48,703 bases of DNA from Chloroflexota bacterium (GTDB lineage Bacteria; Chloroflexota; Limnocylindria; Limnocylindrales; CSP1-4): contig JAXDLE010000004.1 of NCBI GenBank assembly GCA_034666725.1, positions 1-48,703 on the forward strand, read 5' to 3'. The notes below the pieces were generated by a model. It saw nothing but the letters and a program-made list of their open reading frames with translations. It did not search any database and had not been told where the DNA came from. The stretch's first letter is position 1, and every line of letters begins with the position of its first letter. Below, piece after piece: positions 5,242 to 36,858 of this stretch. The translations under genes and the position numbers were made by a program.

Positions 5242-5243
5242 CC

Positions 5244-6065: not shown

Positions 6066-6122
6066 TCCGAAGGCCGACTAGGAGGCTGGCGTCAAATCGG
6101 TGCCAGCCAGCCGAGTCGGAGG

Positions 6123-7304
6123 CTAGGCGGTCGCGCCGGCCGGCGTCTTTGCGACGAGCTCCTCGAACCGCTCGAGCGCGCGGCGCAGGTTGGGCTGCGA
6201 GTTCGCGTAGCTGATGCGGATGTGGTCGGGGCAGACCTTGCCGAACGCGGTACCGCTCAGGACGCACACGCCGGCCTCGTAGAGGAGCTTCTCGGCGAGA
6301 ACCGAGCCGGTCATCCCCGTGCCGCCGATGTTGGGGAACGCGTAGAACGCGCCACTGGGCATCCGGCAACGCACGCCGGGGATCTTGTTGAGGCCCTCGA
6401 CGACGAGGTCGCGCCGGGCGCGGAACTCGGCGGCCATCGCGTCGACCGAATCCTGCGGACCATTGAGTGCTTCCGCCGCCGCGACCTGCTGGAAGGCGCT
6501 CGTGCCGCTGACGCTGTTGATGATCAGCTTGCTGTACGCGTCGACGAGCGTGGGCGGCACGATCGCGTAGCCCATGCGCCAGCCGGTCATGGCGTACGAC
6601 TTGGAGAAGCCGTCGAGGATGATCGTGCGCTCGGCCATCCCCGGCAGCTTGGCGATCGAGTGGTGCTCGCCCTGGTAGACCAGGCGGCCGTAGATCTCGT
6701 CGGCCATGACGACGATGTCGTGCTCGCGCGCGACCTCGGCAATCGCCTCGAGATCGGACATCGTCAGCACGCCGCCGGTGGGGTTGTGGGGCGAGTTGAA
6801 GATGATCAGCTTCGTCTTGGGCGTTACGAGAGAGCGCAGCTCATCGGGGTCGAAGCGGAAGTCCTTGTCCTCGGAGAGGCGCAGCGGGACGGGCGTGCCC
6901 CCGGCGTAGCGCGTCATCGACTCGTAGATGGGGAAACCGGGGTCGGGGTAGATGACCTCGTCACCCGCGTCGATCAGCGCCAGCAGGGCGTAGAACATGA
7001 CCGGCTTGGCGCCCGGTGTGACCACGACATTGCCCGGCTCGACCTGGAAGCCGCGTCGTGACGTGGAGTCCTTCGCGATCGCCTCGCGCAGCACTGGCAG
7101 GCCGAGCGGCGGCGGGTAGTGCGTGAAGCCGTCGTCGAGCGCTTTCTTGGCGGCGTTGCGGATGTTGACCGGAGTGTCGAAGTCGGGCTCACCGACCTCG
7201 AGGTGGATCACGTCGTGACCCTGGGCTTCCCAGGCGCGGGCCTTGCCGGCGGCCTCGAAAGCGGTCTCCGTCCCGATCCCGACCATGCGCTGTGCGAGCT
7301 TCAT
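6123..7304 (-). CDS. Pyridoxal-phosphate-dependent aminotransferase, class I (aspartate aminotransferase-like)
   Basis: The PLP-lysine motif is GFSKSYAMTGWRMGY. Other matches are NSPHNPTGGV, ADEIYGRLVY and PGFPIYES. Confidence 0.9.
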   Translation of the reverse strand: MKLAQRMVGIGTETAFEAAGKARAWEAQGHDVIHLEVGEPDFDTPVNIRNAAKKALDDGFTHYPPPLGLPVLREAIAKDSTSRRGFQVEPGNVVVTPGAKPVMFYALLALIDAGDEVIYPDPGFPIYESMTRYAGGTPVPLRLSEDKDFRFDPDELRSLVTPKTKLIIFNSPHNPTGGVLTMSDLEAIAEVAREHDIVVMADEIYGRLVYQGEHHSIAKLPGMAERTIILDGFSKSYAMTGWRMGYAIVPPTLVDAYSKLIINSVSGTSAFQQVAAAEALNGPQDSVDAMAAEFRARRDLVVEGLNKIPGVRCRMPSGAFYAFPNIGGTGMTGSVLAEKLLYEAGVCVLSGTAFGKVCPDHIRISYANSQPNLRRALERFEELVAKTPAGATA

Positions 7305-7314
7305 GGCCGAAATC

Positions 7315-8217
7315 CTAGCAGCCGTTCTGTGAACTCCTGAACGGGCAATCGTGCCTAAAGAAGCCCCAACTCTCGATGATGCGGGCGCCGTCCTGGAGGT
7401 GACGCCGGCCGAGTGGCTCGCTCAAGTGCACCGAGTAGGGCACGCCCGGCCCCGGCTCGCACGTCTGCACCCCTGCCAGCGACCAAATGGCGAAGGCGAT
7501 CGAGACGCCGGTTTCGCTGTAGGCAAGAAATGGTTCGAGGATCCGACCTTCCGGGCTCTGCCCGCTGGCACACGCCTGCTCGAAGACGACCACATCGATC
7601 TCGGTCGTGTTGCGGGTCAGATTCTCGCCGTGGGCCAGCTCCCAGCGGCCGAACTGGATCGACGAGGGAGTCGAGGGATACGTGGCTCGTTGCGTCGGTG
7701 GCGTTGGCGTGCGCACCGGCCACATTGAGATTACGGGCAAGCCGTTGTGCAGCTGGATCACCTCGCGCAGGTGGACCATTGGCCGGAAGCTGAGGGTGAC
7801 GGCTCTGTCGACGGATTCGCTGGGGCAGCTCAGGTGCTCGCCGTCCTCGATGTCGATGACGACCGCATTCGCGCCATCGTGGATGTCGATCCACCATGTG
7901 CTGACGCATGACTGCGCCGCCCACCAGATGCGCATCCGTGATGGGTCGGACGGCTCGTTCATCACGTGCGGCGAGGCTCGGTCGATCTCGATCGGTCCGA
8001 TGTCCTCGCAGCTCTGAAGCCGACCGGTGCTATCGCCAACCTGGACCTGCGTGCCGCAGGCCACCCACGGGCCCGGGCTGGAACTCGGACTGGGCTCGGT
8101 GGTCGGCGCCGGCGAAGGCACCGTCGACGGTGTGGGCTGAGTCGCCGTGGGCAACGGCCCCGTCGCACAGCCCGCAAGCAGGATCACTATCGCCAGTAGG
8201 GGCGCGACCTGGTTCAT
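7315..8217 (-). CDS. Lipoprotein of unknown function (Cys-rich extracytoplasmic domains)
   Basis: The lipobox is LLAIVILLAGC, followed by a Pro/Ser/Thr linker. The start overlaps the stop of the upstream gene (ATGA at 8214-8217). Confidence 0.7.
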   Translation of the reverse strand: MNQVAPLLAIVILLAGCATGPLPTATQPTPSTVPSPAPTTEPSPSSSPGPWVACGTQVQVGDSTGRLQSCEDIGPIEIDRASPHVMNEPSDPSRMRIWWAAQSCVSTWWIDIHDGANAVVIDIEDGEHLSCPSESVDRAVTLSFRPMVHLREVIQLHNGLPVISMWPVRTPTPPTQRATYPSTPSSIQFGRWELAHGENLTRNTTEIDVVVFEQACASGQSPEGRILEPFLAYSETGVSIAFAIWSLAGVQTCEPGPGVPYSVHLSEPLGRRHLQDGARIIESWGFFRHDCPFRSSQNGC

Positions 8218-10019
8218 TGCCAGTGGAAAGTCACCGCCGAGGCGTCAATCGGAGCGCCGAGCTCCAGACGGATCATATGTAGGACCAGCGGCAAGATGCA
8301 GTAGTCGCCCTCATATGTGCTGCGGCCTTCAACGGCGATTCCGTTGCCTGATTCCCGCAACGTGATTTCGATAGCCGCGCCACAGGGATCGCTCCCCCAC
8401 TCGATCTGCAGTTCGGTCATCCGATTTCCAGGATTGCCGAACCTGAACACGTCTGAGTCGTGACTAGCGAACGTGCTCTTCTGCGGGACTTCGCACCCCA
8501 CCACAAGGCCCGTGTAGTCAACGATCGTGGGATGCAACGACGCATTGTCGGCACGCCCAGTCGGTGGGCATTCGAAGGTAACCCCGGAAGAGGTCGGGGC
8601 AGGCGATGGCGACGTGGCATGTATCTCGCGCTCGTGGCGCACGACTACCTGATCCGCGTGGATCGAATGGGCCACCTGCAGGAAGATGTGCGTCTCGAAG
8701 ACAACGCCATCGCACAGCCTGATGGCCCGCGTGTACCGGGCGACCAAGTCATATCCAGTTGCGCTCCCCGTCAACGTGAGGATGTCAGGGCCATCGCAGG
8801 CCGGCACACTCGAATAACTGATCTCGAGCAACGCCACATCGCCCTCCGGATTGGAGATAGCGAACGGAATCGAGTCTCCGGGATTCTGAGAGGCCCCGCA
8901 GTCGGTGACTAACCCCGTTTCGTCGATGACCTTGGGAGCCAACAGTTGGCAATCGAGTTCACGGCTGATGGGTGCGCTCGTCGGTGAGGGTGCTGGTGGT
9001 GGGGATGGAAACGGAGGGGAATCGATGCGGGCGACGGTGTCCCAGAGCCAGCAAGGTGGTGGCGAGCCATCGTCGCAGCCGCCGTAGAGGCGCGGCGAGA
9101 TCGCGTAAAGCGCCTCGCGACCCTGGAAATTGGAAGCAAAGCGGTCTGCGGCCCCAACCTGCACCCTAAGGCGGTCGGGGTTCGGGCCAAAGTCTGTGTT
9201 TGGAGACAGGCTGCTGAGGAAGTCGGTGTTCTTGCAGTAGCGATTCGGCAAGCCGGGGATGACTGGGTGCGGGTTGAAGGTGCAGTCGATATCGACAAAT
9301 TGACCTGGCCGTGAGGTGTCGACGAGATATCCGCGGACGAGGACGGCTGCGTCAGGGCCGAGGGTAGTTGGATCCAGGTCCGAGGCGTCCGCCACCGTCC
9401 AGTCGTCGCCAGTCGCGGTCTCGTGGACAAGGCCGACGAATTCCACCTCTGCTTCACCCAGCACCCTCAGGGCGAGCACGCCATCAATCGGTGGCGTCGG
9501 GAAGTGGTAGTCGCGGCCGCCGTCCAGGGCCTCCCAAGAACCAGAGCCAGGCGCCTCAGTCGTGGGCGTGTAACGAGCCTCCACGCCCAGCGGCGGCTGT
9601 GCGCCCTCAAGCACACCGAGGGAACATGTACCGGTTGGCGGTGTGCACGTGTTCGCGCGGCTGAAAACGTCGCCAACCGTGATACGTCCTTGGACGAGAA
9701 CGGTCTGGCCGCGCAGTTGGCCGTGCGCGACCAATCCAGCGAACTCGGACGTGCTTAACACTCCGTCGTCGGCTGGCGTCGGACTTGCGGCGGGCGGCTG
9801 TGGGCCGAGACGCGGGAGGGCAACCACAAGGACGAGCAGCGCGGTAACGAGCGCGGCGACACCTAGCCGCGGCACCCAGGAAGAGCTTGGGACGCGTTGA
9901 GGACGCGTTTCGATCTCTTCGCGGACGGCGGGCAACATGACACGGCGCGGCCAGTCAGGTGCGACATGCGCGGCGTCGGCCCGGCGGCGCAGCTCGGCAG
10001 CCAACATGTCGTCGTTCAT
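8214..10019 (-). CDS. Single-pass membrane protein, putative anti-sigma factor with a large extracytoplasmic domain
   Basis: The ATG at 10019 (MNDDMLAAEL) overlaps the sigma-factor stop as ATGA. It has a short cytoplasmic N-terminus, one TM helix (LGVAALVTALLVLVVAL) and about 510 extracytoplasmic residues, including two tandem copies of a ~110-aa four-Cys module. The anti-sigma role is inferred from position only; no zf-HC2 motif is seen. Confidence 0.6.
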   Translation of the reverse strand: MNDDMLAAELRRRADAAHVAPDWPRRVMLPAVREEIETRPQRVPSSSWVPRLGVAALVTALLVLVVALPRLGPQPPAASPTPADDGVLSTSEFAGLVAHGQLRGQTVLVQGRITVGDVFSRANTCTPPTGTCSLGVLEGAQPPLGVEARYTPTTEAPGSGSWEALDGGRDYHFPTPPIDGVLALRVLGEAEVEFVGLVHETATGDDWTVADASDLDPTTLGPDAAVLVRGYLVDTSRPGQFVDIDCTFNPHPVIPGLPNRYCKNTDFLSSLSPNTDFGPNPDRLRVQVGAADRFASNFQGREALYAISPRLYGGCDDGSPPPCWLWDTVARIDSPPFPSPPPAPSPTSAPISRELDCQLLAPKVIDETGLVTDCGASQNPGDSIPFAISNPEGDVALLEISYSSVPACDGPDILTLTGSATGYDLVARYTRAIRLCDGVVFETHIFLQVAHSIHADQVVVRHEREIHATSPSPAPTSSGVTFECPPTGRADNASLHPTIVDYTGLVVGCEVPQKSTFASHDSDVFRFGNPGNRMTELQIEWGSDPCGAAIEITLRESGNGIAVEGRSTYEGDYCILPLVLHMIRLELGAPIDASAVTFHWQ

Positions 10020-10531
10020 CGCTCGAGCTCCGCGGCGAGCGCCTTGCGCGCCCGGGAGAGGCGCCACTTCACTGTTCCAGAAGGGATGCCCAGCCACCCT
10101 CCGATCTCACGCACGTCGTAGCCATGCAGATGGTGCAGCACCAGCAGCGAGCGCTGGTCGGCCGAGAGTCGGTTGAAGGCAACGTCGAAGTCTGATGTTG
10201 CAGCGGGTGAATCGGTGGCCGGCTGGGCGTAGATCGAATCGGCTGAATCGGGCATCTGGATCTCGCGCACCCGTCCGCGGTGGCGGAGCGCCATGCGGCA
10301 CTGGTTGATGAGGATGCGGCCCAGCCAGGCGTCGAAGCGCTCCGGATCGCGGAGCCCGCTGAAGCCGCGCCAGGCGTGAACGAACGACTCCTGGACCGCG
10401 TCACGCGCATCCGCCTCGTTGCCCAAGATCGCGAGCGCGGTCCGGAACAACGGTTCAGCTTTGGCGACAACGACCAATTCGAAGGCCTCCCGATCGCCCG
10501 AGCGCGCTCTGAGCAGGAGCTCGCGATCCAT
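10016..10531 (-). CDS. ECF-type RNA polymerase sigma-70 factor
   Basis: Region 2 is ADARDAVQESFVHAWRGFSGLRDPERFDAWLGRILINQC. Region 4 is LSADQRSLLVLHHLHGYDVREIGGWLGIPSGTVKWRLSRARKAL. Confidence 0.9.
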   Translation of the reverse strand: MDRELLLRARSGDREAFELVVVAKAEPLFRTALAILGNEADARDAVQESFVHAWRGFSGLRDPERFDAWLGRILINQCRMALRHRGRVREIQMPDSADSIYAQPATDSPAATSDFDVAFNRLSADQRSLLVLHHLHGYDVREIGGWLGIPSGTVKWRLSRARKALAAELER

Positions 10532-11061: not shown

Positions 11062-12561
11062 TTAGGGCGCGTAGTCGTCCTGTGGCGGCGGCCGGAAGCG
11101 GCCGCGCGTCATGAAGCGGACGACGCGGAACGTCTCGGGCTTGTGCGAGTACATCCCGCCCACCGCGCTCAGCAGGAAAAGATCCCCGATCGCAGCCGAC
11201 CCCGCGACGATGTAGCCCAGCTGCTGGCCGATCTCACCCTTGATCGACAGTGCGGGGACGGTGATCCCGAACAGCCCCAGGCGGAAGAACGGCGTCTGCG
11301 GTGCCAGGTCGGCGCGCAACGAGGTCGCGAGGAGCCCGCTGTCGTTCGAGCCGCCGGTCAGGAACACGTGCTGGCCGATGGGTGCGGCGGTGGATCCGGT
11401 CCGCGGCTCGAGCAGGTTCGTGGCATCGAGCTGCGACCACTTCGAGATTGTCCCGTCACTCGAGTTGGGCACGGCCCAGTAAGCGGTGTTGGTCGCTTTC
11501 TGGTCGGGGCCGCGGCCGCCGATGACCCAGATGGCGCCCGAGTTGACGAACGTCGTCGCACCGGCACGCGGCACGGGCAGGGCCGCTGAAGCTGACTGGC
11601 CGACCGACATGCCCCAGCCGTTGGGACGGTTGGTCTTGGTGCTGAGCGCGGGGTGGCCCTTTGTGTCGAGGCCCAGGTAATAGACCAAGTTGGTCGTGCC
11701 GCCCGGCCCAACACCGCCCAGGACGTAGACCGCTCCACCGGTGTTCGCGGCGGTTGCCTCGGCGCGCGGCTCGGGCAAGACGAGCTCCGTCAGCTCGGTC
11801 CACTTCGTGAGCTTGGATGTCGCGGCGTCAAGGGCGCTGTACCAGACCTTGTCCGACAGACCGTCCGGGGTGCGACCACCGAACAGGTATAGCCCGCTGG
11901 CGGTAGAGGTGCCGACGGCATCACTCACTGCCACCGGCAAGCCGAGAACGGTCGACTCGGTCCAGCCGGTGAGTACACCCTTCTCGATCGTGCCCTGATA
12001 AACCGTTTGCGTGGGTTGCCCACCCGCGTCCAGGCCACCTATCACGTATGGCACGCCAGCGAGGTTGAGGATCACGGCGTGGCTGCGGGGTGCCGGTAGC
12101 TCTGGCGCGGCCCCCCATATCGCGAGGTTGCCGTCTTCGCGGACCTCGGTCGAGACGACGCTGCCCGTGGGTCCGGCAGCGGTCTCGCCGCCGATCAGGT
12201 ACATGGTCGTGCCGCTCGTGTAGACGACCGCCCCCGTGCGGCCTTCGGGCAGTGCCAGCTCAGGCGGGCTGGCATCCCACGGGATGATCGCGCCGGCCGG
12301 CGCCGGACAGGGCAGCTTGCGCGCGCCACGGTCGTTCTCGCCGGGGCACAGATTGACCGGGCTGATCGCGTTGAAGCCAAGATCGAGCGTGGGTTGGACC
12401 GTCAGGTAATACGCCCGGTCGGGCACATAGCCCAGCAGGAAGATGGCCAGCAGGAACCAGAAGGTGGCCTTGATCGTGGCCCACGACCAGCCATCGGCGT
12501 CGAGCAGACCAAAGGCCGTCCGCCGACGGACCGCTCCCGGCGGCAGCGCGTACTGGGCCAT
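11062..12561 (-). CDS. Membrane-anchored six-bladed Kelch-repeat beta-propeller protein
   Basis: The ATG at 12561 (MAQYALPP) shares one base with the upstream TAA (TAATG). The N-terminal TM helix is WATIKATFWFLLAIFLLGYV. Six repeats end in xxxGG (MYLIGGETAAG, PYVIGGLDAGG, LYLFGGRTPDG, VYVLGGVGPGG, IWVIGGRGPDQ, VFLTGGSNDSG). A C-terminal hydrophobic segment is present. The 125-codon upstream extension in the track is Arg-rich and rejected. Confidence 0.8.
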   Translation of the reverse strand: MAQYALPPGAVRRRTAFGLLDADGWSWATIKATFWFLLAIFLLGYVPDRAYYLTVQPTLDLGFNAISPVNLCPGENDRGARKLPCPAPAGAIIPWDASPPELALPEGRTGAVVYTSGTTMYLIGGETAAGPTGSVVSTEVREDGNLAIWGAAPELPAPRSHAVILNLAGVPYVIGGLDAGGQPTQTVYQGTIEKGVLTGWTESTVLGLPVAVSDAVGTSTASGLYLFGGRTPDGLSDKVWYSALDAATSKLTKWTELTELVLPEPRAEATAANTGGAVYVLGGVGPGGTTNLVYYLGLDTKGHPALSTKTNRPNGWGMSVGQSASAALPVPRAGATTFVNSGAIWVIGGRGPDQKATNTAYWAVPNSSDGTISKWSQLDATNLLEPRTGSTAAPIGQHVFLTGGSNDSGLLATSLRADLAPQTPFFRLGLFGITVPALSIKGEIGQQLGYIVAGSAAIGDLFLLSAVGGMYSHKPETFRVVRFMTRGRFRPPPQDDYAP

Positions 12562-13796
12562 TACGGTGTCGCGCTCGGCGAGGCGGCAGGCGAGGCGGCC
12601 GGGGACGCGGCCGGAGAGGCCCCCGGTGATGCTCCACTGCCGCCTGGCTGCTGCACGACGATGTCGCCGTGCATGTCCTGGTAGTGACCCTGCATGGTGC
12701 AGGCGAATTGCGGCTGGTCGGGCACGTTCGCGACCGTCCAGGTGAACTTCTGCGTGCCGCTCTCGAAGGGAGGCACGCCCGGCAGCTCGGTGTTCTCGGG
12801 CGCCGTGGGCAGCTCCGCCGCGGGGCCGATGTGGAAGTTGTGGTTGCTGCCGGCGTCGTTTGTGATGTCGAACTCGATCGTCTCGCCCTGGACGACGGCG
12901 ATCTGCGTGATGGGCGCGCCACTCGCGTCGACCCATTGCAGCTGGGCGTTGGCGTGGATCTCGATGGCCCGTGGGTTCTCAGCGGTGCCCGGGCTCGTCA
13001 CCGGGGCGGGCGTGCCCGGCGCGGCCGTGCCGGATGGTGTGGCGCGCCAGCAGGCAGGAACAGGCGTCGCGTCGGGCGGCGGCGAATAGCTCGGGTCGCG
13101 CCAGCCTTCCACGTCGAGCGGCGGCGGGATCGTCTCCGGGGGCAGTACGTGCTGCGGCTGGTAGACGAACTTCGTGTCCTTGCTCGCGGTGATGAACTTG
13201 ATGATGTCTTCGACTTCGCGGTAGTTGAGCGGGCCCTTGGGCTGGAGCCAGGCGGGCATGACGCTGTTGGGATCGCCACAGACGATGCGCCCGCCTTCAG
13301 TGAGGACCGAGCGGATGTAGTCGGGGTTGAGATGGCCGTTGCCTGACGCGCCCGTGGTGGTCAAGACGTTGTAGAGCTTGGCCTGGTCGTTGAGCGGCGG
13401 GCCGACGCCGCCCTGGCCCAGCGGGCCATGGCAGCGCGCGCAGTTGGCCAGGAACAGCGCGTAGCCGCGCGAGACGTCGGTGACGTACTGGTCCTCTGTC
13501 TCGGAGTCGAGCCGCCCGCCGAAACCAACGACCGGCAGGCCGATGTCATAGAGCCAATAGAGCGGGATGAAGAGCACGATCAGCAGCGCCGCGAGGAAGG
13601 CAATCATCCGCGCGTTGCCGCTCTGCTTGACGATCTGGGTCGCGCGCCCCTCGGTCAGGCCAACCGTGTGTGCCTGCTCGCCGGCGGAAAAGCGCACGGC
13701 GGCCGAAGCGGATGCGGTGGGGACGTCGGGCTCGCGTGGCGTTACCGCGCCCGCCGGTTCGTCCGGCCGTGGCACGAGGTTGCGGTCGTCCACCAT
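12561..13796 (-). CDS. Membrane-anchored monoheme cytochrome c fused to a type-1 copper (cupredoxin) domain
   Basis: The TM anchor is MIAFLAALLIVLFIPLYWLY. The heme motif is CARCH (13428-13442), with a possible Met ligand in SVMPAW. The C-terminal copper loop is CTMQGHYQDM (12672-12701), which has the azurin-type C-x4-H-x3-M spacing, with an upstream His in SNHNFHIG. A PAS-rich tail follows. The start overlaps the Rieske stop (TAATG). Confidence 0.8.
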   Translation of the reverse strand: MVDDRNLVPRPDEPAGAVTPREPDVPTASASAAVRFSAGEQAHTVGLTEGRATQIVKQSGNARMIAFLAALLIVLFIPLYWLYDIGLPVVGFGGRLDSETEDQYVTDVSRGYALFLANCARCHGPLGQGGVGPPLNDQAKLYNVLTTTGASGNGHLNPDYIRSVLTEGGRIVCGDPNSVMPAWLQPKGPLNYREVEDIIKFITASKDTKFVYQPQHVLPPETIPPPLDVEGWRDPSYSPPPDATPVPACWRATPSGTAAPGTPAPVTSPGTAENPRAIEIHANAQLQWVDASGAPITQIAVVQGETIEFDITNDAGSNHNFHIGPAAELPTAPENTELPGVPPFESGTQKFTWTVANVPDQPQFACTMQGHYQDMHGDIVVQQPGGSGASPGASPAASPAASPAASPSATP

Positions 13797-14464
13797 TAGA
13801 TACAGCCCTGCGGCGAGCGCGGCGGGATGAGTCCGGGCTGGCCGAGCGGTACAGGCAGCGGGCCCAGGGTGATCTTGGATGTGTCGACCGTCAGCACGCC
13901 GCCTTCGATGGTGTGAGCGAAACGGTCGAGCGAGCGCGGCGCCGGGCCGAGCTCGCGGATCTTGATGCCGAGCCGGTCATAGCGCGAGCCGTGGCACGGG
14001 CACTCGAACCAGTAGTTGGTCGTGCAGAAGTTGGGCTTGCAGCCGAGGTGCGGACAGCGCTGATATAGCGTGCGCACGTTGGTGTTGAGACCCTCGCCGT
14101 CCGTCGACGTGCCGTCGGCGAAGCCGCGCGATGGATCGATCAGCTGGACGTAGCAGCGCGCCTGCGAGATGTAAGACGGGGCACCGTCCTGGAGGGTCGC
14201 GCCGCGCACCGCCTGGTTGTCGCCGACAACGACCATGTCACCGAGCTCGATCAGCCCCCCGAAACCCTTCGACAGGTTGGGCCACAGGAAGCCGAGCAGG
14301 CCGCCGGTGACTTCGAGCAGCCACAGACCGACACCGGCACCGATCGACCGCCGAATCAGCGTTCGCCGCGACAGCCCGGCAGGCCGGCCCTGGCGCATCT
14401 CGCGCAGCACGTCGCGCGTGAGCGTGCGCGGCTCCTGCCAGCGGGCGAGCTTCCAATTACCCAT
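13796..14464 (-). CDS. Rieske [2Fe-2S] subunit of a cytochrome bc/b6-type complex
   Basis: The Rieske boxes are CPHLGC and CPCHGSRYD. A Tat-like signal/anchor is present (RRTLIRRSIGAGVGLWLL). The ATG at 14464 (MGNWKLARW) overlaps the upstream TAA as TAATG. The upstream 96 codons of the track ORF are rejected. Confidence 0.9.
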   Translation of the reverse strand: MGNWKLARWQEPRTLTRDVLREMRQGRPAGLSRRTLIRRSIGAGVGLWLLEVTGGLLGFLWPNLSKGFGGLIELGDMVVVGDNQAVRGATLQDGAPSYISQARCYVQLIDPSRGFADGTSTDGEGLNTNVRTLYQRCPHLGCKPNFCTTNYWFECPCHGSRYDRLGIKIRELGPAPRSLDRFAHTIEGGVLTVDTSKITLGPLPVPLGQPGLIPPRSPQGCI

Positions 14465-15117
14465 TACAGGGCGAACCACAGGCCGTTTTCCCACGGCACC
14501 GTGTAGCCGTAGCCCGGGCCGCGGAAGAACGCGCCCAAGAACGTAATGAACAACCCGGCGGCGCAGAACAACGTGAAGATCACGATGCCCAGCTTGCGAT
14601 CGGCGGGACGGGACGAGCCGCCGTCGCCGCGCGGTCCGCGATCCATGTACGGAATCGCGCCGATCGCGATGAAGATCGACAGGATGGGGATCGCGCCCGC
14701 GACCGTGGGGTGGAAGTAGGCGAGCAGCTCCTGGATGCCGACCAGGTACCACGGCGCCTTGGCAACGGCAGGCGTGGCGATGGGGTTGGCGAGCTCCTCG
14801 AGCGGCGCATTCACGAACAGACCCATCATCAGCAGGAAGACGCTCATGACCGCCGCGGCGAAGAACTCGATCGACAGCAGGTGCGGCCAGGTCATGACCG
14901 TGTCGTCGGGTTCCTTCTGTACGCGAACGACCGCATCCTGCTTGACCAGCGCCAGCAGGCGGTACGGCTTCGCGGCCATTGGCACGCGCTGCTTGTCGAT
15001 CTCCGTAGTGCGCCGCTCGGGCGGCGCCGCGGGCAGCGTCGAGCGCGTCTTCTCAGCCGGCGCGGCCGAGGCCGGCGTGGCCGGTGCGGGCAGGTTGGAT
15101 TTCTTCTCGTCCGTCAT
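14464..15117 (-). CDS. Cytochrome b C-terminal domain protein (subunit IV-like) with a Pro/Ala-rich N-terminal extension
   Basis: Three TM helices follow TWPHLLSIEFF. The segment APWYLVGIQELL occupies the position of the PEWY quinol-site motif. The gene lies 15 nt downstream of the b6 gene. Confidence 0.8.
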   Translation of the reverse strand: MTDEKKSNLPAPATPASAAPAEKTRSTLPAAPPERRTTEIDKQRVPMAAKPYRLLALVKQDAVVRVQKEPDDTVMTWPHLLSIEFFAAAVMSVFLLMMGLFVNAPLEELANPIATPAVAKAPWYLVGIQELLAYFHPTVAGAIPILSIFIAIGAIPYMDRGPRGDGGSSRPADRKLGIVIFTLFCAAGLFITFLGAFFRGPGYGYTVPWENGLWFAL

Positions 15118-15132
15118 CGGTCGGTCATATCT

Positions 15133-15864
15133 CTAGAGCGGCCCGCTGATGCCGCCGTCTTTCCTGATCCGCCAGAAGTGGACGGCCAGGAACACCGCGG
15201 CAGTGAGCGGCAACAGGATCACGTGGAGAACATAGAAGCGCAGCAAGGTGTTCTGCGACACCTCGATGCCGCCGAAGATGAGCAGCTGCGAGGGCCGAGC
15301 GACAAGCGGCACGTACGAGGCGATGTTGTCGCCGATCGTCACGGCCCAGAAGGCGATCTGGTCCCACGGCAGCAGATAGCCAGTGAACGAAAGCGCGATC
15401 GTGAAGAACAGCAGCAGCGTTCCGATCACCCAGTTGAACTCACGCGGCGGCTTGTAGGCCCCGTGGTAGAAGACCCGCATCATGTGCAGGAAGACGAAGA
15501 ACACCATGAGGTGCGCCGCCCAGCGGTGGATGTTGCGCGTCAGCAGACCGAATGGAACCTCAGCCTGGATGCGCAGGATGTCGTCGTAGGCGCTCGTCGA
15601 TGACGGCACGTAGAAGAACATCAGGAACACGCCGGTCACGGTGAGCACCAGGAAGAAGAAGAACGACAGGCCACCCAGGCAGAACGTGTAGGCGAACTTG
15701 ACCGCGTGCTGGCGGACGCGCACCGGGTGCAGGTGGAGAAAGACGTTGTTCATGACCGCGTACGCACGCGATCGCTCGTCCGTGGGATACGGCTGACGGA
15801 AGAGGGAGCGCCACAGCGCGCTGCGCCGCAGCGCCACGTCCACGCGCTCGAAGAACCCTCTCAA
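15133..15864 (-). CDS. Cytochrome b6-type subunit (N-terminal four-helix cytochrome b)
   Basis: The heme ligands are spaced H-x13-H ([16 protein letters not shown]) and H-x14-H ([16 protein letters not shown]). The FCLGG motif carries the conserved Cys (15679-15681). [12 protein letters not shown] is also present. The TTG start overlaps the upstream stop (TTGA). Confidence 0.92.
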
Positions 15865-17843
15865 CGAACGTAACCTCCCGCCTCGGCGCCGTTGCCGATG
15901 CCTGCCAGACCAAGCTGGGTGTCACGGTAGCTCTCTTTGTACAGCCGACCGTCGGAGCTGATCTCCTGGAGCTCGAACCGCTCCATCGTAATGGCGTCAT
16001 ACGGACATCGCTTGACGCACAATGCGCAGCGAATGCACCGCTCCTCGTCGAGCACCATCGCCGCGCCCTCCGACCAGCCGTACGCGTCGACGAGCTCAGG
16101 CAGCGCACCCTCGGATTTCATCTGGTTGATGTCGATCATGTGGATGACGCCTTCGGGGCAGACATCGGCGCAAGCGCCGCAGAGCACGCAGCGGAAGCCG
16201 TCGAACCAGATGTTGTAGTTGCACATGAGGCAGCGCGTGCTTTCGGTGATCGCCTGCGGCGCGGTGTAGCCGCGCTCGACCGGCGTCGTGAAGTTGACGT
16301 GCGGATCTGCGCTGGGCATGCGCGCCGCGACCTGGGTCATGGGCACGTGGACGCGCGGCAGCACGTCGTAGAACTCAGGCATCTCGTGGCGCCAGCTGGA
16401 CACGATGCGGACGTTGGCGTCGACATCGACCTCGCGCCTGCCCGAAAGGTAGCGATCGATTGCGTAGGCGCACTTCTTGCCGTGGCCGGCGGCCTCGATA
16501 AGCGTTGTCGGGCCGGTCACGAAGTCGCCGCAGGCAAAGACGCCGCGCACGTTCGTGGCGTACGTGCCGGGGTCGACGCGGACGCGGCCGCGATTGATCT
16601 CGAAGCTCGACTCGACCGGCAGGAAGGTGTTGTCGGCGGCCTGGCTGACAGCCGGGATGACGGTGTCGGCCTTGATCTCGAACTCGCTGCCCTCGATCGG
16701 CACCGGCGCGCGGCGGCCGGTTGCATCGGGCTCGCCCAGGCGGTTGCGGATGAACTTCACCGCGCGGACCTTGCCGTTCTCGTCGCCGAGGACCTCGACC
16801 GGGCTCACGAGGAACTCCATGCGCACGCCTTCGCGCTCGGTCTCGCCCAGCTCTTCTTCGTCCACGACCAGCTCTGAGCGGGTGCGCCGGTAGGCGATGG
16901 TCACGTTCTTGGCACCGTAGCGAAGGCTCGTGCGCGAGCAGTCCATCGCGGTGTAGCCGCCGCCGATGATGACCACGTCCTGGCCGACCGTCAGGGGCTC
17001 TCCCAGGTTGGCCTTCTTCATGTAATCGACGCCGTACTGGATGCCGTCGAGGTCACCGCCGGGCACATCAAGCGCGACGGCATTCATTGCGCCCGCGCAG
17101 ATTGCGATCGCGTCGTGCTGCTCCAGAAGCTGCTCGAAGGTGACGTCGCGGCCGACCCGGACGCCGTAGCGGAACTTGACCCCCAGCCGCTCCACGAGCT
17201 TGAGATCCATCTCGATGGCTTCTCGTGGGAGTCGGAAGGCGGGGACGCCGATGAGCATCGTGCCGCCGCCATAGGGCAGCTCGTCGAAGACCGTGACCTG
17301 GTGTCCGGCGACGGCCAGCTCGCGCGCAACGGCCACGCCCGCCGGGCCGGCACCGATGACCGCGACCGTCGTGTCGCGCGGCGTGATGTTGGGCATGTCA
17401 TCGGGGATGCCGCTTGCCTGGTGCCACTCGACGAGGAAGCGCTTCATCGCGCGGATGGCGAGCGGCCGGTCAATGTCGCCGCGGCGGCAGGCCCGCTCGC
17501 ACGGCGCGGAGCAGACGTAGGCGCACATCGCCGCGACCGGGTTCGGCTCACGCGAGAGGATGTAGCCCTCTTCGAAGCGACCTTCAGCGGCGAGGTTCAG
17601 GTAGCCGCGACAGTTCGTGCCGACGGGGCACGCTTCCTGGCACTCGATGTTGCACTGAAGCCAGGAGGCGTCGACGGGCTGAACCAGGAATTCCTGGTTG
17701 GGATCGATGGCCAAGTAGGTCAGACCTCTCGGGGCAGGCTGGGCTCGATTGCCACCGTGAGTGATCGTAGCAGCGGCCGCGGTTGGCGGCATGTGCGGCG
17801 CCCGGCTCCACCGCCCGTACCCCTGAACTGCTCCACAGGTCAC
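15861..17843 (-). CDS. GltD/NfnB-like NAD(P)H-dependent Fe-S flavoprotein with a C-terminal 2x[4Fe-4S] ferredoxin domain
   Basis: The N-terminal Cys cluster domain is [11 protein letters not shown]...[13 protein letters not shown]. The FAD Rossmann motif is [29 protein letters not shown]. The second dinucleotide fold is [16 protein letters not shown], and CGDFVTGP is also present. The ferredoxin motifs are [12 protein letters not shown] and [12 protein letters not shown]. The start is uncertain: GTG at 17843 or ATG at 17792. Confidence 0.85.
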
Positions 17844-17879
17844 ATTGTCGCCCTATCTGGCGCCACCTAGGCTCAGCCC

Positions 17880-19130
17880 ATGGTCGACGTCCCGGCGCGC
17901 CTGCCGCCAGCCCCTGCCTACCCGCCGGCGCCGGCATTGGGCAGCGGCCCGTGTGGCCCGGCGCGGGCCGACGTCGAGTACCGCTGCGCGGAGGCGGAGC
18001 GCCTCGCCCAGGCCGCCCAGATCCAGGTCCAGCGGCTGCGCGATGCCAAGCGGATGCTGGCGCGCGTCCAGGCGCAGCGCGACACTGATGCGCGCGTGCG
18101 CGACCGGCGCCTCTTGAGCGACGCCAAGGAGAACGCGCGCCGCGCTTACCACGAGACCTACACGCGCGCCAGGAACGGCGTAGTCAATGCTGACGTCCAG
18201 GGCGCGGCCGGCGAGTGGCTGCGCGAGATCAATCGCCTCAACCGCCAACTCGAGCTGGCCGACCGCCGCGCGGCCGATGTGGCGCGCCAGATCAGTGAGC
18301 TCACCGCCACGCTTCCCGGGATCGAGCTCGCGGCCGACGCGGCGCGTATCTCGGCCGAGGCAGCCCAGGTGACGTGCGTTGAGGCACGCCGCGCTCTTGC
18401 GGCCTGCGAAGAGGATGCCGCGCGCCAAGTTGGCGCGACAGCCCGGAATACAGCCATGCCCGGGACGCGCGCCACGGGCTCCCCGGTATCGGCGCCACCT
18501 GGCTACGGGCCCCCTTCCGGACCGGCCACCGGACCAACCGGCCCCGCGCCACGAGCGGGCGCGACCGTCGTGAGCGCGACCGGACCGGCACCCATCTCGA
18601 TGCTGTTGCGCGGCGACCGCCAGGCGCTGCTCGGTCTGACCCTGCGCTTGGCCGAGGAAACCGGCGTCGAGGCCGGCCGGCTGCAGCTCCTGCTGCTCGA
18701 GCTGCGCCAGGCGATTGCGGCCCGTGCGCTCGAGGACAACGCCCTCGCCTTCCCACAGGGGCATCCCTTCTGGAGCCAGTTCTCAGCCGACGGCGGCCGA
18801 CAGTTCACGATCAGCCTTGCCCGACTGGGCTACACCTTCGACGGGCGCGAGGGCTGGCGCGACGGCCGCGCCCCCGGGCCACGCGAGCTGGCCATGGCAC
18901 TGGAACACGCCGGCAACGACCCGCGCTCCCTGCGCCGGCCGGCCGGTCAGGCGGCGATCGACGCTTTGTGGCAGGGCACGACGGTGCTCGTCGAGCCCTG
19001 GCTCGCCGCGGCTGCGCCCGATCTGTCGTTGGGTCGATTGATCGACGTGCTCGGTCCGCGCGCGTCCCGCCTGGGCGAGCTGTGGGACATGTGGGGCCGG
19101 CTACGACCCCAGCTACTCGGCGGTAATTAG
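17880..19130 (+). CDS. Hypothetical protein (N-terminal coiled coil, Pro/Gly-rich linker, C-terminal globular domain)
   Basis: This long ORF has GC-rich third positions and heptad-like Arg/Ala/Glu-rich segments, then the linker GSPVSAPPGYGPPSGPATGPTGPAP. I recognised no family, and the start is uncertain. Confidence 0.5.
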   Translation: MVDVPARLPPAPAYPPAPALGSGPCGPARADVEYRCAEAERLAQAAQIQVQRLRDAKRMLARVQAQRDTDARVRDRRLLSDAKENARRAYHETYTRARNGVVNADVQGAAGEWLREINRLNRQLELADRRAADVARQISELTATLPGIELAADAARISAEAAQVTCVEARRALAACEEDAARQVGATARNTAMPGTRATGSPVSAPPGYGPPSGPATGPTGPAPRAGATVVSATGPAPISMLLRGDRQALLGLTLRLAEETGVEAGRLQLLLLELRQAIAARALEDNALAFPQGHPFWSQFSADGGRQFTISLARLGYTFDGREGWRDGRAPGPRELAMALEHAGNDPRSLRRPAGQAAIDALWQGTTVLVEPWLAAAAPDLSLGRLIDVLGPRASRLGELWDMWGRLRPQLLGGN

Positions 19131-20515: not shown

Positions 20516-21541
20516 TCAGGGCAGGAAGAGGACGCCGGAGGGGTCGACCCGGAGGGACACCGACTCACCGATTGATGGTGGCGCGCCTGCCGCGGTCCGG
20601 ACGTGGGCCTCCAGCTGCGGACCGTCGCCATCCGCTGGCGCGACAAGGATCGTCGTCGTGTCGCCCCGGAAAACAACGGCGCGGACTACGCCACTCAGCG
20701 GCCCCTCCGGATCGAGCGCCACTGCCTCCGGCCGGATCAGGAACCGGGTTGCGCCTCCGGGCCGTGAGTCGGGCGTTGGGAGGTCGCCCCAGGGCGTCCT
20801 GAGCGAGCCATCGTCCGGCTCGATCGGAATCACGTTCGTCAGGCCCAGGAAGCGCGCCACGAACTCGTTCGGCGGCGCTCGCCATAGGTCGCGCGCTGGC
20901 ATGACGGTCTCGAGCCGCCCCTGGTTGAGCACAGCCACGCGGTCACCCATGGCAAGCGCCTCTTCCTGGTCGTGCGTCACGTAGATGAGCGGCAGACCCA
21001 GGCGCGCGAAGAGCCCCGTCAGCTCGTCGAGGAGGTGCGTCCGGAGGGCGCGATCCAGAGCGCCGAGCGGCTCGTCGAGCATGAGCAGGCGCGGCATCGG
21101 CGCGAGCGCCCGGGCCAGCGCGACGCGCTGCTGCTCACCGCCCGACAGCTGATCGATGCGCCGCGCGCCGTAGCCGGGCAGCCCCACGAGAGCGAGCACC
21201 TCGTCGACGCGCCTGCGCCGCTCGGCGGCAGGCATGTCGCGTGTCTCGAGCCCGAAAGCGACGTTGCGGGCGACGTCGCGGTGCGGAAAAAGCGCGTAAT
21301 CCTGGAACATCAGCCCGAAGTTGCGTCGGTGGACCGGCACGCCGGCGACATCGGCGCCGGCCCATTCGATTCGACCAGCGGTCAGCGGCTCGAGGCCGGC
21401 GATCGCCCGCAGCAGCGTCGACTTGCCGGAGCCGCTCGGTCCGAGTACGGCGAGACGTTCAGCAGCACCGATCTCGAGGCTCACCCCATCGAGCGCCATC
21501 GTCGTCCCATAGGCGACCCGAACGTCGTGGATGCTCAGCAT
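20516..21541 (-). CDS. thiQ: ABC transporter ATP-binding protein (thiamine/Fe3+-type importer ATPase)
   Basis: Walker A is GPSGSGKST, the signature motif is LSGGEQQRVALARAL and Walker B is LLMLDEP. The ATG at 21541 (MLSIHDV) overlaps the permease stop (TGATG). The symbol rests on operon context with the TPP riboswitch. The C-terminal extension looks more FbpC/PotA-like. Confidence 0.85.
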   Translation of the reverse strand: MLSIHDVRVAYGTTMALDGVSLEIGAAERLAVLGPSGSGKSTLLRAIAGLEPLTAGRIEWAGADVAGVPVHRRNFGLMFQDYALFPHRDVARNVAFGLETRDMPAAERRRRVDEVLALVGLPGYGARRIDQLSGGEQQRVALARALAPMPRLLMLDEPLGALDRALRTHLLDELTGLFARLGLPLIYVTHDQEEALAMGDRVAVLNQGRLETVMPARDLWRAPPNEFVARFLGLTNVIPIEPDDGSLRTPWGDLPTPDSRPGGATRFLIRPEAVALDPEGPLSGVVRAVVFRGDTTTILVAPADGDGPQLEAHVRTAAGAPPSIGESVSLRVDPSGVLFLP

Positions 21542-23172
21542 CACGTGCCGCCGACAGCGGTGGTGCGCAACCGGTCGAAGGCAAGCGCCGCGATCGCGGT
21601 CACGATCATCAGTACGGTCGCCATGGCCATCGCCTGACCAAACGCGAGTGTGCCCGGCTGGCTGAGCAGCCGGAAGATCGCGATCGGCATTGTCGGAGCG
21701 TCCGGTCGGACGATGAACAGCGTGGCCCCGAATTCGCCCAGCGAGACCGCGAAGGCGAACGAAGCACCGACCAGCAGCGCCCGGCCGATCATCGGCAGGT
21801 CGACCATCCGCCATGTCCTGGCCGGCGACGCACCCAGCACCGCGGCAGATTCCCGGAGACGACCATCGATCGAGCGCAGCAACGGGACCGTGGCTCGGAC
21901 CACGAACGGCAGTGCGACCAGCGCGTGGGCGATGGGAATGAGGATTGGCGAAGCGCGCAGGTCGATCGGCAGCTGGCCCAGCGACACGAGGAATCCGAAG
22001 CCGACGATCACCGCCGACGTGCCGAGCGGCAGCATCAGCAGCGCGTCGAACCCGGTCGCCAGGGCGCCGCGTCTGTAGGCGATCAGCGCCGCCGCGAGCA
22101 GGCCGAGCGGCACACAGATGGCCGTCGCCGCGGCGGCGAAGACGAGCGAGTTGCGGATCGCATCGATGGGCGGCACGAACAGGGCGCCGCGCGCGCTTTC
22201 ACCGAAGAGTGCGCTGAAATTGCTGAGCCCGTAACCGGCAGTGCCGGCAAGGGCTCGCTCAACCAGGGCCGCGAGCGGCAGGCCAAGGAAGAGGATCAGG
22301 ACTCCGACCGTGGCGCCCACGAACGTCCACTCGTCGCGGCCCCTTGGGCGTCGCGCGGCGATCCGCGCCGTGGACAGGCGCTGGCTCACCGCGGCGGTAG
22401 CCTGGAGCCGCGAATACACGACCAGCAGGACGCCAAGGAAGCCGAGCTGCAGGAGCGCGAGGGTGGCCGCGGCCGGCAGGTCGAGCAGGACCGCCGCCGC
22501 GCGATAGACCGCGACCTCGATCGTGGCGTAGCCATAGCCGCCCAGGATCAGGATCACGCCGAACGACGTGAAGGTGAAAAGGAAGACGATCGAAGACGCG
22601 GACAGAATGGCGGGCTTCAGCAGCGGCCAGGTGACCTCGCGGAACGCGCCCCAGCGGCTCGCGCCAAGGACTCGTGCCACCTCCTCTGTCCGCGGATCGA
22701 GCTGCGCCCAAACGCCGCCGACGACGCGCAGCACGACAGCACAGTTGTAGAACACGTGCGCAGCCAGGATCGCCCAGATCGTGTGGTCGAGCCGCAGGCC
22801 TATTACGCCGTTCGGCCCGATCAACGCGAGGAACGCCGACCCGACAACCACGGTTGGCAGTACGAACGGCACGAGCACCAATGCGTTGAGCAGGCGCCGG
22901 CCGCGAAAGTCGAACCTTGCCAGGACGAACGCGCCGGGCAGGCCAATGGCAAGGGTCAGCAGAGTAGAAATGGCCGCCTGCCAGAACGTGAACCACGCCA
23001 AGTCGCGCGTCTCGGGGCGCGTCAGCACCGCGACCGGTCCGGACAGGTCGAGCACGCTATGCGGGGCCAGGCCGCGGACCAGGATGGACGCGACCGGAAA
23101 GACGAAGAACAGCCCGATGAACCCCAGCGGCAATGCCGCCAGGGCGATCGTCAGCGCGCGGCGGCTTGCCAC
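21541..23172 (-). CDS. thiP: ABC transporter permease with duplicated permease domains (thiamine/iron type)
   Basis: It has about 12 TM helices in two BPD-transporter repeats (EVARVLGASRWGAFREVTWPL and ESAAVLGASPARTWRMVDLPM EAA loops). Confidence 0.85.
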   Translation of the reverse strand: MASRRALTIALAALPLGFIGLFFVFPVASILVRGLAPHSVLDLSGPVAVLTRPETRDLAWFTFWQAAISTLLTLAIGLPGAFVLARFDFRGRRLLNALVLVPFVLPTVVVGSAFLALIGPNGVIGLRLDHTIWAILAAHVFYNCAVVLRVVGGVWAQLDPRTEEVARVLGASRWGAFREVTWPLLKPAILSASSIVFLFTFTSFGVILILGGYGYATIEVAVYRAAAVLLDLPAAATLALLQLGFLGVLLVVYSRLQATAAVSQRLSTARIAARRPRGRDEWTFVGATVGVLILFLGLPLAALVERALAGTAGYGLSNFSALFGESARGALFVPPIDAIRNSLVFAAAATAICVPLGLLAAALIAYRRGALATGFDALLMLPLGTSAVIVGFGFLVSLGQLPIDLRASPILIPIAHALVALPFVVRATVPLLRSIDGRLRESAAVLGASPARTWRMVDLPMIGRALLVGASFAFAVSLGEFGATLFIVRPDAPTMPIAIFRLLSQPGTLAFGQAMAMATVLMIVTAIAALAFDRLRTTAVGGT

Positions 23173-24934: not shown

Positions 24935-24967
24935 GCGCGGACCTCCAGAGATGAGGGACCGGGGTCG

Positions 24968-36836: not shown

Positions 36837-36858
36837 CGGGACGGAAGAATAGCCGACC

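Follow-up and report, generated by a model that had tools for sequence, protein, structure and literature searches.

Why should an operon for a Rieske/cytochrome b6-type complex begin with a gene for an NAD(P)-binding flavoprotein of the kind found in glutamate synthase and in NfnAB? The question is raised by six minus-strand genes in a 48,703-nucleotide stretch of DNA (contig JAXDLE010000004.1, positions 1 to 48,703, of assembly GCA_034666725.1; here called the window) from a Chloroflexota bacterium of the class Limnocylindria (order Limnocylindrales, CSP1-4). Database titles of the nearest proteins likewise point to Candidatus Limnocylindria/Limnocylindrales. The six genes code for an iron-sulfur (Fe-S) flavoprotein, a cytochrome b, a subunit IV, a Rieske protein, a cytochrome c with a predicted copper domain, and a Kelch protein. 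The parts of a quinol-oxidizing complex are present with their cofactor motifs, the genes are coupled as an operon, and they are conserved as a unit. We lean, with moderate confidence, toward the reading that the operon encodes one menaquinol-oxidizing Rieske/cytochrome b6 complex of the APWY type (named for a motif at the quinol oxidation site, Qo) with an NfnB/GltD-like subunit on the n-side (cytoplasmic side) of the membrane, in which bifurcation at Qo would deliver electrons to NAD(P)+. We hold with high confidence that the flavoprotein forms part of a Rieske/cytochrome b complex homologous to those of anaerobic ammonium-oxidizing (anammox) bacteria, and only tentatively that NAD(P)+ reduction by bifurcation is its physiological direction. 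What is said below about function draws on sequence, on one single-chain structure model, and on published work on homologues.

Operon structure and the start of the first gene

The six open reading frames (ORFs) are chained from 11062 to 17714 (Table 1), with GC contents at third codon positions of 0.86 to 0.91, which are coding-type values and typical for true genes in a window of 65 to 70% GC. Read directly, the junctions are tight: the flavoprotein stop codon (TGA) and the cytochrome b start codon (TTG) share the four bases TTGA, with a Shine-Dalgarno-like GGGAGG 9 nt 5' of the TTG; cytochrome b and subunit IV are separated by 15 nt; and the subunit IV/Rieske, Rieske/cytochrome c, and cytochrome c/Kelch junctions are TAATG overlaps. 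On the downstream side, the Kelch stop codon lies 10 bases from the end of a convergent DUF2203 gene.

The preliminary description of this DNA had reported six chained minus-strand genes, and their coordinates hold when ORFs and junctions are read directly, just as the gene content and architecture are borne out by Pfam domain calls on the six proteins. The flavoprotein gene, given there as 15861 to 17843, keeps its stop codon and loses its start. The first start codon of the ORF is a GTG at 17843, but about 120 homologues are 616 to 617 amino acids (aa) long and align from ORF residue 44, so that the TTG at 17714, which is preceded by GAGAGG and yields a protein of 617 aa, is the likely start. 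With this start, a 165-bp divergent intergenic region extends up to a plus-strand gene beginning at 17880, and the flavoprotein gene is therefore the first of the operon. A promoter is presumed to lie in this region, in which a sigma-70 scan gave no consensus match; terminator-like matches fall inside genes and are not meaningful.

Table 1. Features of the window, with percent identity to the window proteins in relatives whose flavoprotein is 83% identical
Feature	Coordinates	Strand	Identity	Remarks
NAD(P)-binding Fe-S flavoprotein	15861-17714	-	83%	First gene; 617 aa; Pfam (Fer4_20 6e-16, Pyr_redox_2 5e-29, Fer4_7 1e-10) and NCBIfam
Flavoprotein, N-terminal Fer4_20 domain	17412-17660			8 Cys
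Flavoprotein, flavin adenine dinucleotide (FAD) fold	17325-17366
Flavoprotein, NAD(P) fold	16941-16976
Flavoprotein, C-terminal 2x[4Fe-4S] ferredoxin domain	15990-16235
Split cytochrome b6-type subunit	15133-15864	-	85%	243 aa; Pfam Cytochrome_B 2e-47
Cytochrome b, NNVFLH44LHP	15724-15750			His44 codon 15733-15735
Cytochrome b, heme-cN motif C62LGG	15670-15681
Subunit IV	14464-15117	-	73%	217 aa; 3 transmembrane (TM) helices predicted; Pfam Cytochrom_B_C 7.5e-5
Subunit IV, Glu84	14866-14868
Subunit IV, Qo motif A121PWY	14746-14757			Residues 121-124
Rieske [2Fe-2S] protein	13796-14464	-	70%	222 aa; one TM helix; Pfam Rieske 3e-7
Rieske, twin-arginine translocation (Tat) motif SRRTL	14357-14371
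Rieske, box CPHLGC	14039-14056
Rieske, box CPCHGSRY	13979-14002
Membrane-anchored monoheme cytochrome c, fused to predicted azurin-like cupredoxin	12561-13796	-	52%	Pfam cytochrome c families, Cytochrome_CBB3 3e-8
Cytochrome c part, C119ARCH	13428-13442
Cupredoxin domain	12642-12989
Kelch beta-propeller protein	11062-12561	-	44%	499 aa; Pfam PF24681 84.2 bits (cutoff 50), Kelch 1e-23
Divergent intergenic region	17715-17879	.		From corrected start; presumed promoter and 5' untranslated region
Divergent Ala/Arg-rich ORF	17880-19130	+		416 aa
Thiamine pyrophosphate (TPP) riboswitch, RF00059	24960-25068			72.6 bits
Genes behind the riboswitch, with riboswitch	20516-25068	-
Thiamine pyrophosphokinase	24266-24934	-
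Solute-binding protein	23151-24269	-
Permease	21541-23172	-
ABC ATPase	20516-21814	-
NAD(P) transhydrogenase, complete	33947-37010	-
PntA	35691-37010	-
PntA, 4-TM piece	35407-35694	-
PntB	33947-35410	-
Protein with MerR-type, GAF, and GGDEF domains	27600-30404	+		934 aa
Extracytoplasmic function (ECF) sigma factor	10016-10531	-
ORF	8214-10097			627 aa
ORF	7315-8217			300 aa
ORF	31873-33876	-		667 aa
ORF	25671-26249	+		192 aa
ORF	26430-27455	+		341 aa

A flavoprotein without its usual partners

The first gene product shares with the NfnB/GltD/SudA family the Fer4_20 domain with two clusters and the two dinucleotide folds, and all the protein motifs previously quoted for it, including two CxxCxxCxxxCP, are present. 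It differs from that family in an added C-terminal 2x[4Fe-4S] domain and in its partner, which here is a membrane cytochrome in place of an NfnA, GltB, or SudB encoded alongside. No TM helix is predicted by hydropathy analysis. The best NCBIfam match, PRK12771 (429 bits), lies below that model's cutoff, as do those to the GltD models TIGR01317 (217.6 bits; cutoff 447.7) and TIGR01318 (281.8 bits; cutoff 482.95) and to the GltA model. The closest solved relatives are NfnA 9n5u, the formate dehydrogenase subunit 9bov, NfnB 4ylf/5jca (E values of 1e-83 to 1e-84), and GltD 2vdc (1e-64). The Rieske/cytochrome b-linked subunit of anammox Brocadia (locus L076) is 40% identical and colinear end to end over 578 aa.

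Neither gltB nor nfnA is found in the 48.7-kb window, and the gene is flanked downstream by cytochrome b and upstream by an unrelated divergent ORF, with no NfnA-type ([2Fe-2S]/FAD) neighbor. Because the partner genes are absent from the window and the scores fall below cutoffs, we reject membership of the flavoprotein in GltD/GltB, NfnAB, or SudAB systems; the first gene of the operon does not encode a true GltD. Source records of homologues carry names such as 'glutamate synthase beta' and 'formate dehydrogenase beta subunit'. An AYRRTR motif follows the second dinucleotide fold; it is not known to discriminate between NADH and NADPH preference.

Conservation and spread of the gene cluster

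The survey covered one genome per bacterial or archaeal species and used a six-sequence flavoprotein alignment, an 18-sequence alignment being too divergent; among the first 600 pattern matches 335 flavoprotein relatives were confirmed, and the best 80 loci of the 335 were analyzed. Taxon labels are record titles of metagenome bins, and one 'Bifidobacteriaceae' label is probably mis-binned. The same six genes recur in the same order in independent assemblies of relatives (L001/L002 and L003-L018), and the arrangement is thus more than chance. The identities in those relatives (Table 1) indicate that the flavoprotein, at 83%, is constrained like the catalytic cytochrome, at 85%, whereas the Kelch protein, at 44%, evolves fast; flavoprotein and cytochrome b are the two most constrained of the six products. 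In a second Limnocylindria group, with 53% flavoprotein identity, the first four genes are kept, a diheme cytochrome c replaces the fusion protein, and the Kelch gene is missing.

Beyond these close relatives, genes for cytochrome b, subunit IV, and the Rieske protein adjoin the flavoprotein gene in 45 of the best 80 loci, and two further loci end at a contig edge. The 45 linked loci span at least eight phylum-level groups: they are mostly from Acidobacteriota, with others in Planctomycetota, Verrucomicrobiota/Lentisphaerota, Nitrospirota, Zixibacteria, Eisenbacteria, Abyssobacteria, and other Chloroflexota. The gene order of the window is also that of Limnocylindria, of an Ardenticatenales metagenome-assembled genome (MAG), and of another Chloroflexota MAG. 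The order flavoprotein-Rieske-cytochrome b-subunit IV occurs in many Acidobacteriota and in Victivallales, Verrucomicrobia, Planctomycetales, Abyssobacteria, Zixibacteria, Eisenbacteria, and Nitrospirae, and anammox Brocadia has a third. Operons of other lineages end in membrane-anchored cytochromes with 2 to 10 hemes. Among the best 80 loci, no relative adjoins cytochrome b if it is fused to another enzyme or is without the C-terminal ferredoxin domain.

The synteny with cytochrome b in related genomes, on which the preliminary description had staked its association, is therefore conserved. Its further suggestion that such an association had been discussed only for anammox Planctomycetes fails, because the cluster is widespread. 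A 2013 paper by Dibrova et al. is said to have noted the same co-occurrence, and our statement of prior knowledge rests on their 2017 text. That text reported a large NAD(P)-binding Fe-S protein alongside the Rieske/cytochrome b complex, both in operons of planctomycetes and 'in many other cases', and took this co-occurrence as the basis of an evolutionary scenario (PMC5600118).

These data bear on whether the flavoprotein is a subunit at all. It could be a soluble GltD/NfnB/SudA-like enzyme that happens to be cotranscribed, or else serve the complex as a redox sensor or regulator, as its lack of a TM helix and the many different soluble enzymes served by its close sequence relatives would allow. 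We consider this highly improbable: the stop codon overlaps the cytochrome b start, linkage to cytochrome b persists over distant phyla despite two gene orders, the window holds no gltB or nfnA, and the GltD models score below cutoff. Moreover, the homologous subunits of Kuenenia are reported to co-migrate as one complex (PMC12954380; complexome study cited in PMC5600118), from which a physical association of the window subunits is inferred.

In a neighbor-joining tree of 81 flavoproteins, built without support values, most linked sequences split from the unlinked ones; the linked sequences are not monophyletic, and the Brocadia flavoprotein stands at the base of the unlinked group. The closest unlinked relatives are in Lentisphaerae and Kiritimatiellales MAGs (L041, positions 4912-7614, and L048), where the N termini of neighboring ORFs appear CysD/CysN-like by eye, a hint of a different soluble partner system. 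A search for cultured carriers with an acidobacterial orthologue returned named matches that are metagenome-assembled or Candidatus (Terracidiphilus, Ca. Sulfotelmatomonas) and thus no tractable host, and we found nothing relevant in the literature on Limnocylindria respiration or in the Nitrospina genome paper.

Cytochrome b, subunit IV, and an invariant n-side histidine

How might electrons pass between such a flavoprotein and the membrane? Cytochrome b carries four predicted heme ligands (H113, H127, H214, and H229, for hemes bL and bH) and a CxGG motif, from which covalent attachment of a heme cN is predicted. An extra histidine, His44, lies 18 residues before the cysteine of this motif and is invariant in 47/47 flavoprotein-linked cytochromes b, as are the bis-His heme ligands (kept in 46 to 47 of them). 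Only 21 of the 47, from Limnocylindria, one other Chloroflexota, Nitrospirae, and Brocadia, have the heme-cN cysteine, and His44 is thus the more universal n-side feature; in the other 26 (L019-L050 and L079 among the loci) Tyr or Gly replaces the cysteine, and several of these proteins are long cytochromes b that include subunit IV as a fusion.

In AlphaFold3 models of the anammox complexes, an extra heme b sits at the dimer interface, held by one His from each cytochrome b monomer (Kuste4571 His43, Kustd1481 His62) (PMC12954380). His44 of the window aligns with His62 of the Brocadia Kustd1481 orthologue, and since that protein also has Arg266-Lys267, matching the published numbers for Kustd1481, His44 is by alignment the residue predicted in those models to ligate the interfacial heme. 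Arg550 of Kustd1483 is reported to face the extra heme; the numbering of the Brocadia flavoprotein is off by a few residues from it. In one alignment the position of His44 is Lys24 in five solved b6 sequences; the solved b6 proteins match the window cytochrome b (E value of 2e-49) only from residue 60. This comparison covered the flavoprotein-linked cytochromes and the five solved b6 proteins, and within this scope a specificity of His44 for flavoprotein-linked cytochromes is at most putative.

In subunit IV, the APWY motif is kept in 44 to 46 of 46 sequences and Glu84 in 39 of 46; Glu84 and His79 are both conserved Qi-side residues. The anammox models have heme cN ligated by a glutamate, which is linked to a low heme-cN potential (PMC12954380), and Glu84 is a putative counterpart of that residue.

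The predicted high-potential branch

The Rieske signature in Limnocylindria is Ser plus Tyr at all loci but one, and Ser plus Phe in most other lineages. By the rule that Ser plus Tyr marks the highest-potential class, with potentials above +260 mV (PMC4122944), the window Rieske protein is predicted to exceed +260 mV; the measured values for their anammox counterparts are +303 and +335 mV (PMC12954380).

The fifth product combines a cytochrome c part, with one TM helix, a single CxxCH motif, and Met180 as ligand, with a cupredoxin domain (copper ligands His319, Cys366, His371, and Met375) and a Pro/Ala/Ser-rich C-terminal tail. All its ligands, including the four of the type-1 copper site, are invariant in 22 homologues. 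In an AlphaFold2 model, residues ~270 to 385 have a predicted local distance difference test (pLDDT) score above 90, and Foldseek matches the domain to azurin and to Chloroflexus auracyanin A with a probability of 1.00 and a TM-score of ~0.66. The Pfam Copper-bind match is below threshold (14.9 bits against 21.2; E value of 0.037). On the strength of ligand conservation and predicted fold, we assign this product as a cytochrome c fused to a type-1 (blue) copper domain; the copper exit module proposed previously thus gains an azurin/auracyanin fold. Such an outlet is reminiscent of the auracyanin carriers of Chloroflexus, in contrast to the multiheme cytochromes of the other lineages.

The Kelch protein has TM helices at residues 28-46 and 451-469, by hydropathy, that bracket the propeller, which, judged by the basic residues flanking both helices, would lie on the extracytoplasmic side. 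Its gene follows the operon in every Limnocylindrales locus of at least 80% identity that extends far enough, and is absent elsewhere among the best 80 loci. We regard it as a putative lineage-specific, fast-evolving, and translationally coupled add-on, which may be a subunit, an assembly factor, or a passenger.

Relation to known Rieske/cytochrome b complexes

The anammox complexes (Kuenenia Kuste4569-4574 and Kustd1480-1485; Brocadia locus L076) are the nearest parallels. They share with the window an operon-encoded GltD/NfnB-like FAD subunit with a C-terminal ferredoxin domain (homologous to Kuste4570/Kustd1483), a split cytochrome b that bears both the CxGG heme-cN motif and the n-side His proposed as ligand of the interfacial heme (His44 here, His62 there), and a Rieske protein with the high-potential Ser signature. 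They differ in gene order and in the appended Kelch protein of the window, in subunit IV (3 predicted TM helices here and 5 in the anammox models), and in the outlet, which here is a monoheme cytochrome c-cupredoxin with no HAO-like partner and there a hexa- or octaheme cytochrome. The host also differs, being here probably an aerobic Chloroflexota heterotroph and not an anaerobic chemolithoautotroph. No structure of a flavoprotein-bearing Rieske/cytochrome b complex is among the PDB matches searched; for the anammox complexes, AlphaFold3 predicts an n-side position of the flavoprotein, with four Fe-S clusters leading to its FAD (PMC12954380).

Kao and Hunte (2014) defined an 'APWY clade' of delta-proteobacteria, Chloroflexi, Nitrospirales, Planctomycetes, and Actinobacteria, of which no member was characterized; they predicted mid-to-high-potential Rieske proteins for it and suggested reverse operation (PMC4122944). 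By their sequences, the window cytochrome b and subunit IV belong to this clade, which overlaps subfamily (clade) G of Dibrova et al. Shared traits are the APWY Qo motif, the split cytochrome b and subunit IV, a mid-to-high-potential-type Rieske protein, a patchy spread (Chloroflexi, Nitrospirae, Planctomycetes, and others), and the co-occurring large NAD(P)-binding Fe-S protein of Dibrova et al. The clade is described there phylogenetically only, and in that literature we found neither Limnocylindria nor the invariant His44 mentioned, nor a cupredoxin fusion or a Kelch gene (PMC4122944, PMC5600118).

Cytochrome b6f and the Firmicute b6c complex share the four-helix b6, three-helix subunit IV, heme-cN motif, Rieske protein, and Q-cycle architecture, and b6f also uses a copper protein, plastocyanin, as downstream carrier. 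Here, by contrast, cytochrome b has ~40 extra N-terminal residues with His44 where b6 has Lys24, APWY stands in place of PEWY or PDWY, a stoichiometric flavoprotein gene is present, the copper domain shares one polypeptide with the cytochrome c subunit, and PetG/L/M/N genes are not seen.

Cytochrome b also scores 294.8 bits with the NCBIfam model for Geobacter ExtP (NF040969), just over the equivalog cutoff of 290, and automatic NCBI annotation would name it ExtP ('selenite/tellurite reduction operon b-type cytochrome'). Subunit IV, in contrast, reaches only 48.5 bits with the ExtQ model (NF040970; cutoff 150), the other five operon proteins have no reportable Ext-named match, and there is no evident porin-type gene in the annotated window. 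A Geobacter-type Ext selenite/tellurite reduction operon is therefore considered unlikely, and an automatic 'ExtP' label would be misleading here.

The ExtP match and the APWY motif nevertheless have to be weighed in relation to one further mode of action. In the reverse operation that Kao and Hunte suggested for APWY complexes, a confurcation or reversed Q cycle, electrons from the high-potential side (copper, heme c, and Rieske) would join electrons from NAD(P)H to reduce menaquinone at Qo. APWY was tied to reverse electron input with Geobacter p-cresol methylhydroxylase as the example (PMC4122944), and the ExtP model that cytochrome b passes is built on Geobacter. We judge reverse operation improbable in this host, however: neither the operon nor its immediate surroundings encode a periplasmic substrate dehydrogenase, there is no evident reason for an aerobic heterotroph to feed the quinone pool with high-potential electrons, and the exit module resembles an ordinary donor to a terminal oxidase.

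Direction of electron flow

A link between quinone and NAD(P), by bifurcation or by reverse flow, has been published as a hypothesis for the anammox complexes and is plausible here by analogy. In particular, the Kartal hypothesis of NAD(P)H generation via Qo-site bifurcation is argued for in PMC12954380. In the bifurcating complex that we favor, topology and homology would place the flavoprotein on the n-side, with FAD, about four [4Fe-4S] clusters in a chain, and an NAD(P) site. The p-side exit would run from a Tat-exported high-potential Rieske protein through the membrane-anchored monoheme cytochrome c to its fused blue copper and then, probably, to an aerobic terminal oxidase. Menaquinol would be oxidized at Qo and its two electrons split. 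One would drop ~375 mV to the Rieske center and continue through heme c and copper to the oxidase, and this downhill step would pay for the other, which would travel via hemes bL, bH, and cN, perhaps also via a further heme bound by both His44 residues of the dimer, into the Fe-S chain and FAD, where NAD(P)+ would be reduced. The same wiring could run backwards.

With standard potentials (menaquinone ~-75 mV, NAD(P) -320 mV), we estimate the four-electron reaction to be exergonic by ~250 meV before the membrane potential is counted. By a published symmetry argument, a high-potential Rieske protein would imply a heme bL low enough in potential to serve NAD(P) at -320 mV.

Several points weigh against bifurcation as the working mode. 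Once a normal membrane potential is counted, the reaction is by our estimate near equilibrium. The host is probably an aerobic heterotroph, for which NAD(P)H should not be scarce, and with a PntAB transhydrogenase encoded 16 kb away the need for a dedicated NAD(P)H generator is not obvious. The n-side cofactor set differs within the flavoprotein-linked cytochrome b family, since 26 of the 47 lack the heme-cN cysteine, and in the neighbor-joining tree the flavoproteins linked to cytochrome b do not come out as a single clade. There is no visible block on ordinary quinone reduction at the Qi site, a problem that the anammox modelers raised as well (PMC12954380). Experimental work is known only for anammox members, and the APWY clade was explicitly called uncharacterized by the same authors who suggested that it runs in reverse (PMC4122944).

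In the main rival to bifurcation, which we consider possible and on balance rather unlikely, the flavoprotein would work as a dehydrogenase. Electrons taken from NAD(P)H would travel by way of the Fe-S chain and the n-side hemes to reduce quinone at Qi, making the complex a membrane-anchored NAD(P)H:quinone, or overall an NAD(P)H:cytochrome c/copper, oxidoreductase, with a resemblance to the FNR/ferredoxin input proposed for b6f cyclic flow. Several characterized members of the GltD family, GltD and DPD, oxidize NAD(P)H and pass the electrons to Fe-S clusters, a heterotroph has NAD(P)H to burn, and subunit IV has Glu84 and His79 as conserved residues on the Qi side. This corresponds to the 'membrane-anchored dehydrogenase' picture of Dibrova et al., and four-helix diheme cytochromes commonly anchor dehydrogenases (PMC5600118); a His beside heme cN would suit quinone reduction, according to the anammox modelers, who nonetheless judge this direction unlikely because ~250 mV per electron would be wasted without pumping (PMC12954380). 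It would also leave unexplained why the high-potential Rieske signature and APWY co-vary with the flavoprotein, and why a complete Qo/Rieske/cytochrome c module stands in the same operon in every lineage.

Other genes in the window

The only Rfam match in the window is a TPP riboswitch that is unrelated to the respiratory operon, and no tRNAs were found. The genes behind it (Table 1) look like a riboswitch-controlled operon for thiamine uptake and salvage, and in relatives L001 and L002 the respiratory operon is likewise flanked by these thiamine genes. The divergent 416-aa ORF upstream of the flavoprotein gene has no Pfam match; it is kept beside the operon in Limnocylindrales, at ~36% identity where the flavoprotein is 83% identical. 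The transhydrogenase genes, in which PntA is accompanied by a separate 4-TM piece, specify a complete proton-translocating NAD(P) transhydrogenase that already gives the organism an NADPH route driven by the proton-motive force.

A 934-aa protein joins an N-terminal MerR-type helix-turn-helix domain to three GAF domains and a GGDEF diguanylate cyclase domain, an unusual regulator architecture. An ECF sigma factor gene is followed, on the same minus strand, by 627-aa and 300-aa ORFs, both without Pfam match, that may encode an anti-sigma factor and a partner. Three further ORFs, of 667, 192, and 341 aa, have coding-like GC at third positions and no Pfam match.

Significance

The operon type itself was already known; new here are the copper-outlet variant, the breadth of the family outside anammox bacteria, and the family-wide His44. 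Its annotation is at risk, in that NCBI rules lead to 'ExtP' and other sources to 'glutamate synthase' or 'formate dehydrogenase beta subunit'. Qo-site bifurcation to NAD(P)+ by a Rieske/cytochrome b complex has been proposed for anammox bacteria, which are slow growing and genetically intractable. The core of flavoprotein, His44 cytochrome b, APWY subunit IV, and high-potential-type Rieske protein is common in lineages regarded as aerobic, and the window shows a stripped-down outlet of one heme c and one copper. The family-wide His and the wide occurrence sharpen the question, which is not yet testable because no cultured carrier has been identified; a cultivable one, for example among the Acidobacteriota, would bring it within reach of ordinary genetics and membrane biochemistry.

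The most far-reaching reading is a speculative one that we hold to be unlikely: that in Limnocylindria and many Acidobacteriota complex III itself is a quinol-based electron-bifurcating NAD(P)+ reductase. Oxygen would then be the high-potential sink, reached via cytochrome c and blue copper, and the second menaquinol electron would be lifted via the b hemes and a His44-bound bridging heme onto the Fe-S/FAD wire. If this is true, ordinary aerobic respiration would directly yield NAD(P)H in addition to the proton-motive force, and what has been an anammox curiosity would become a general and abundant form of respiratory energy conversion in soil and freshwater bacteria.

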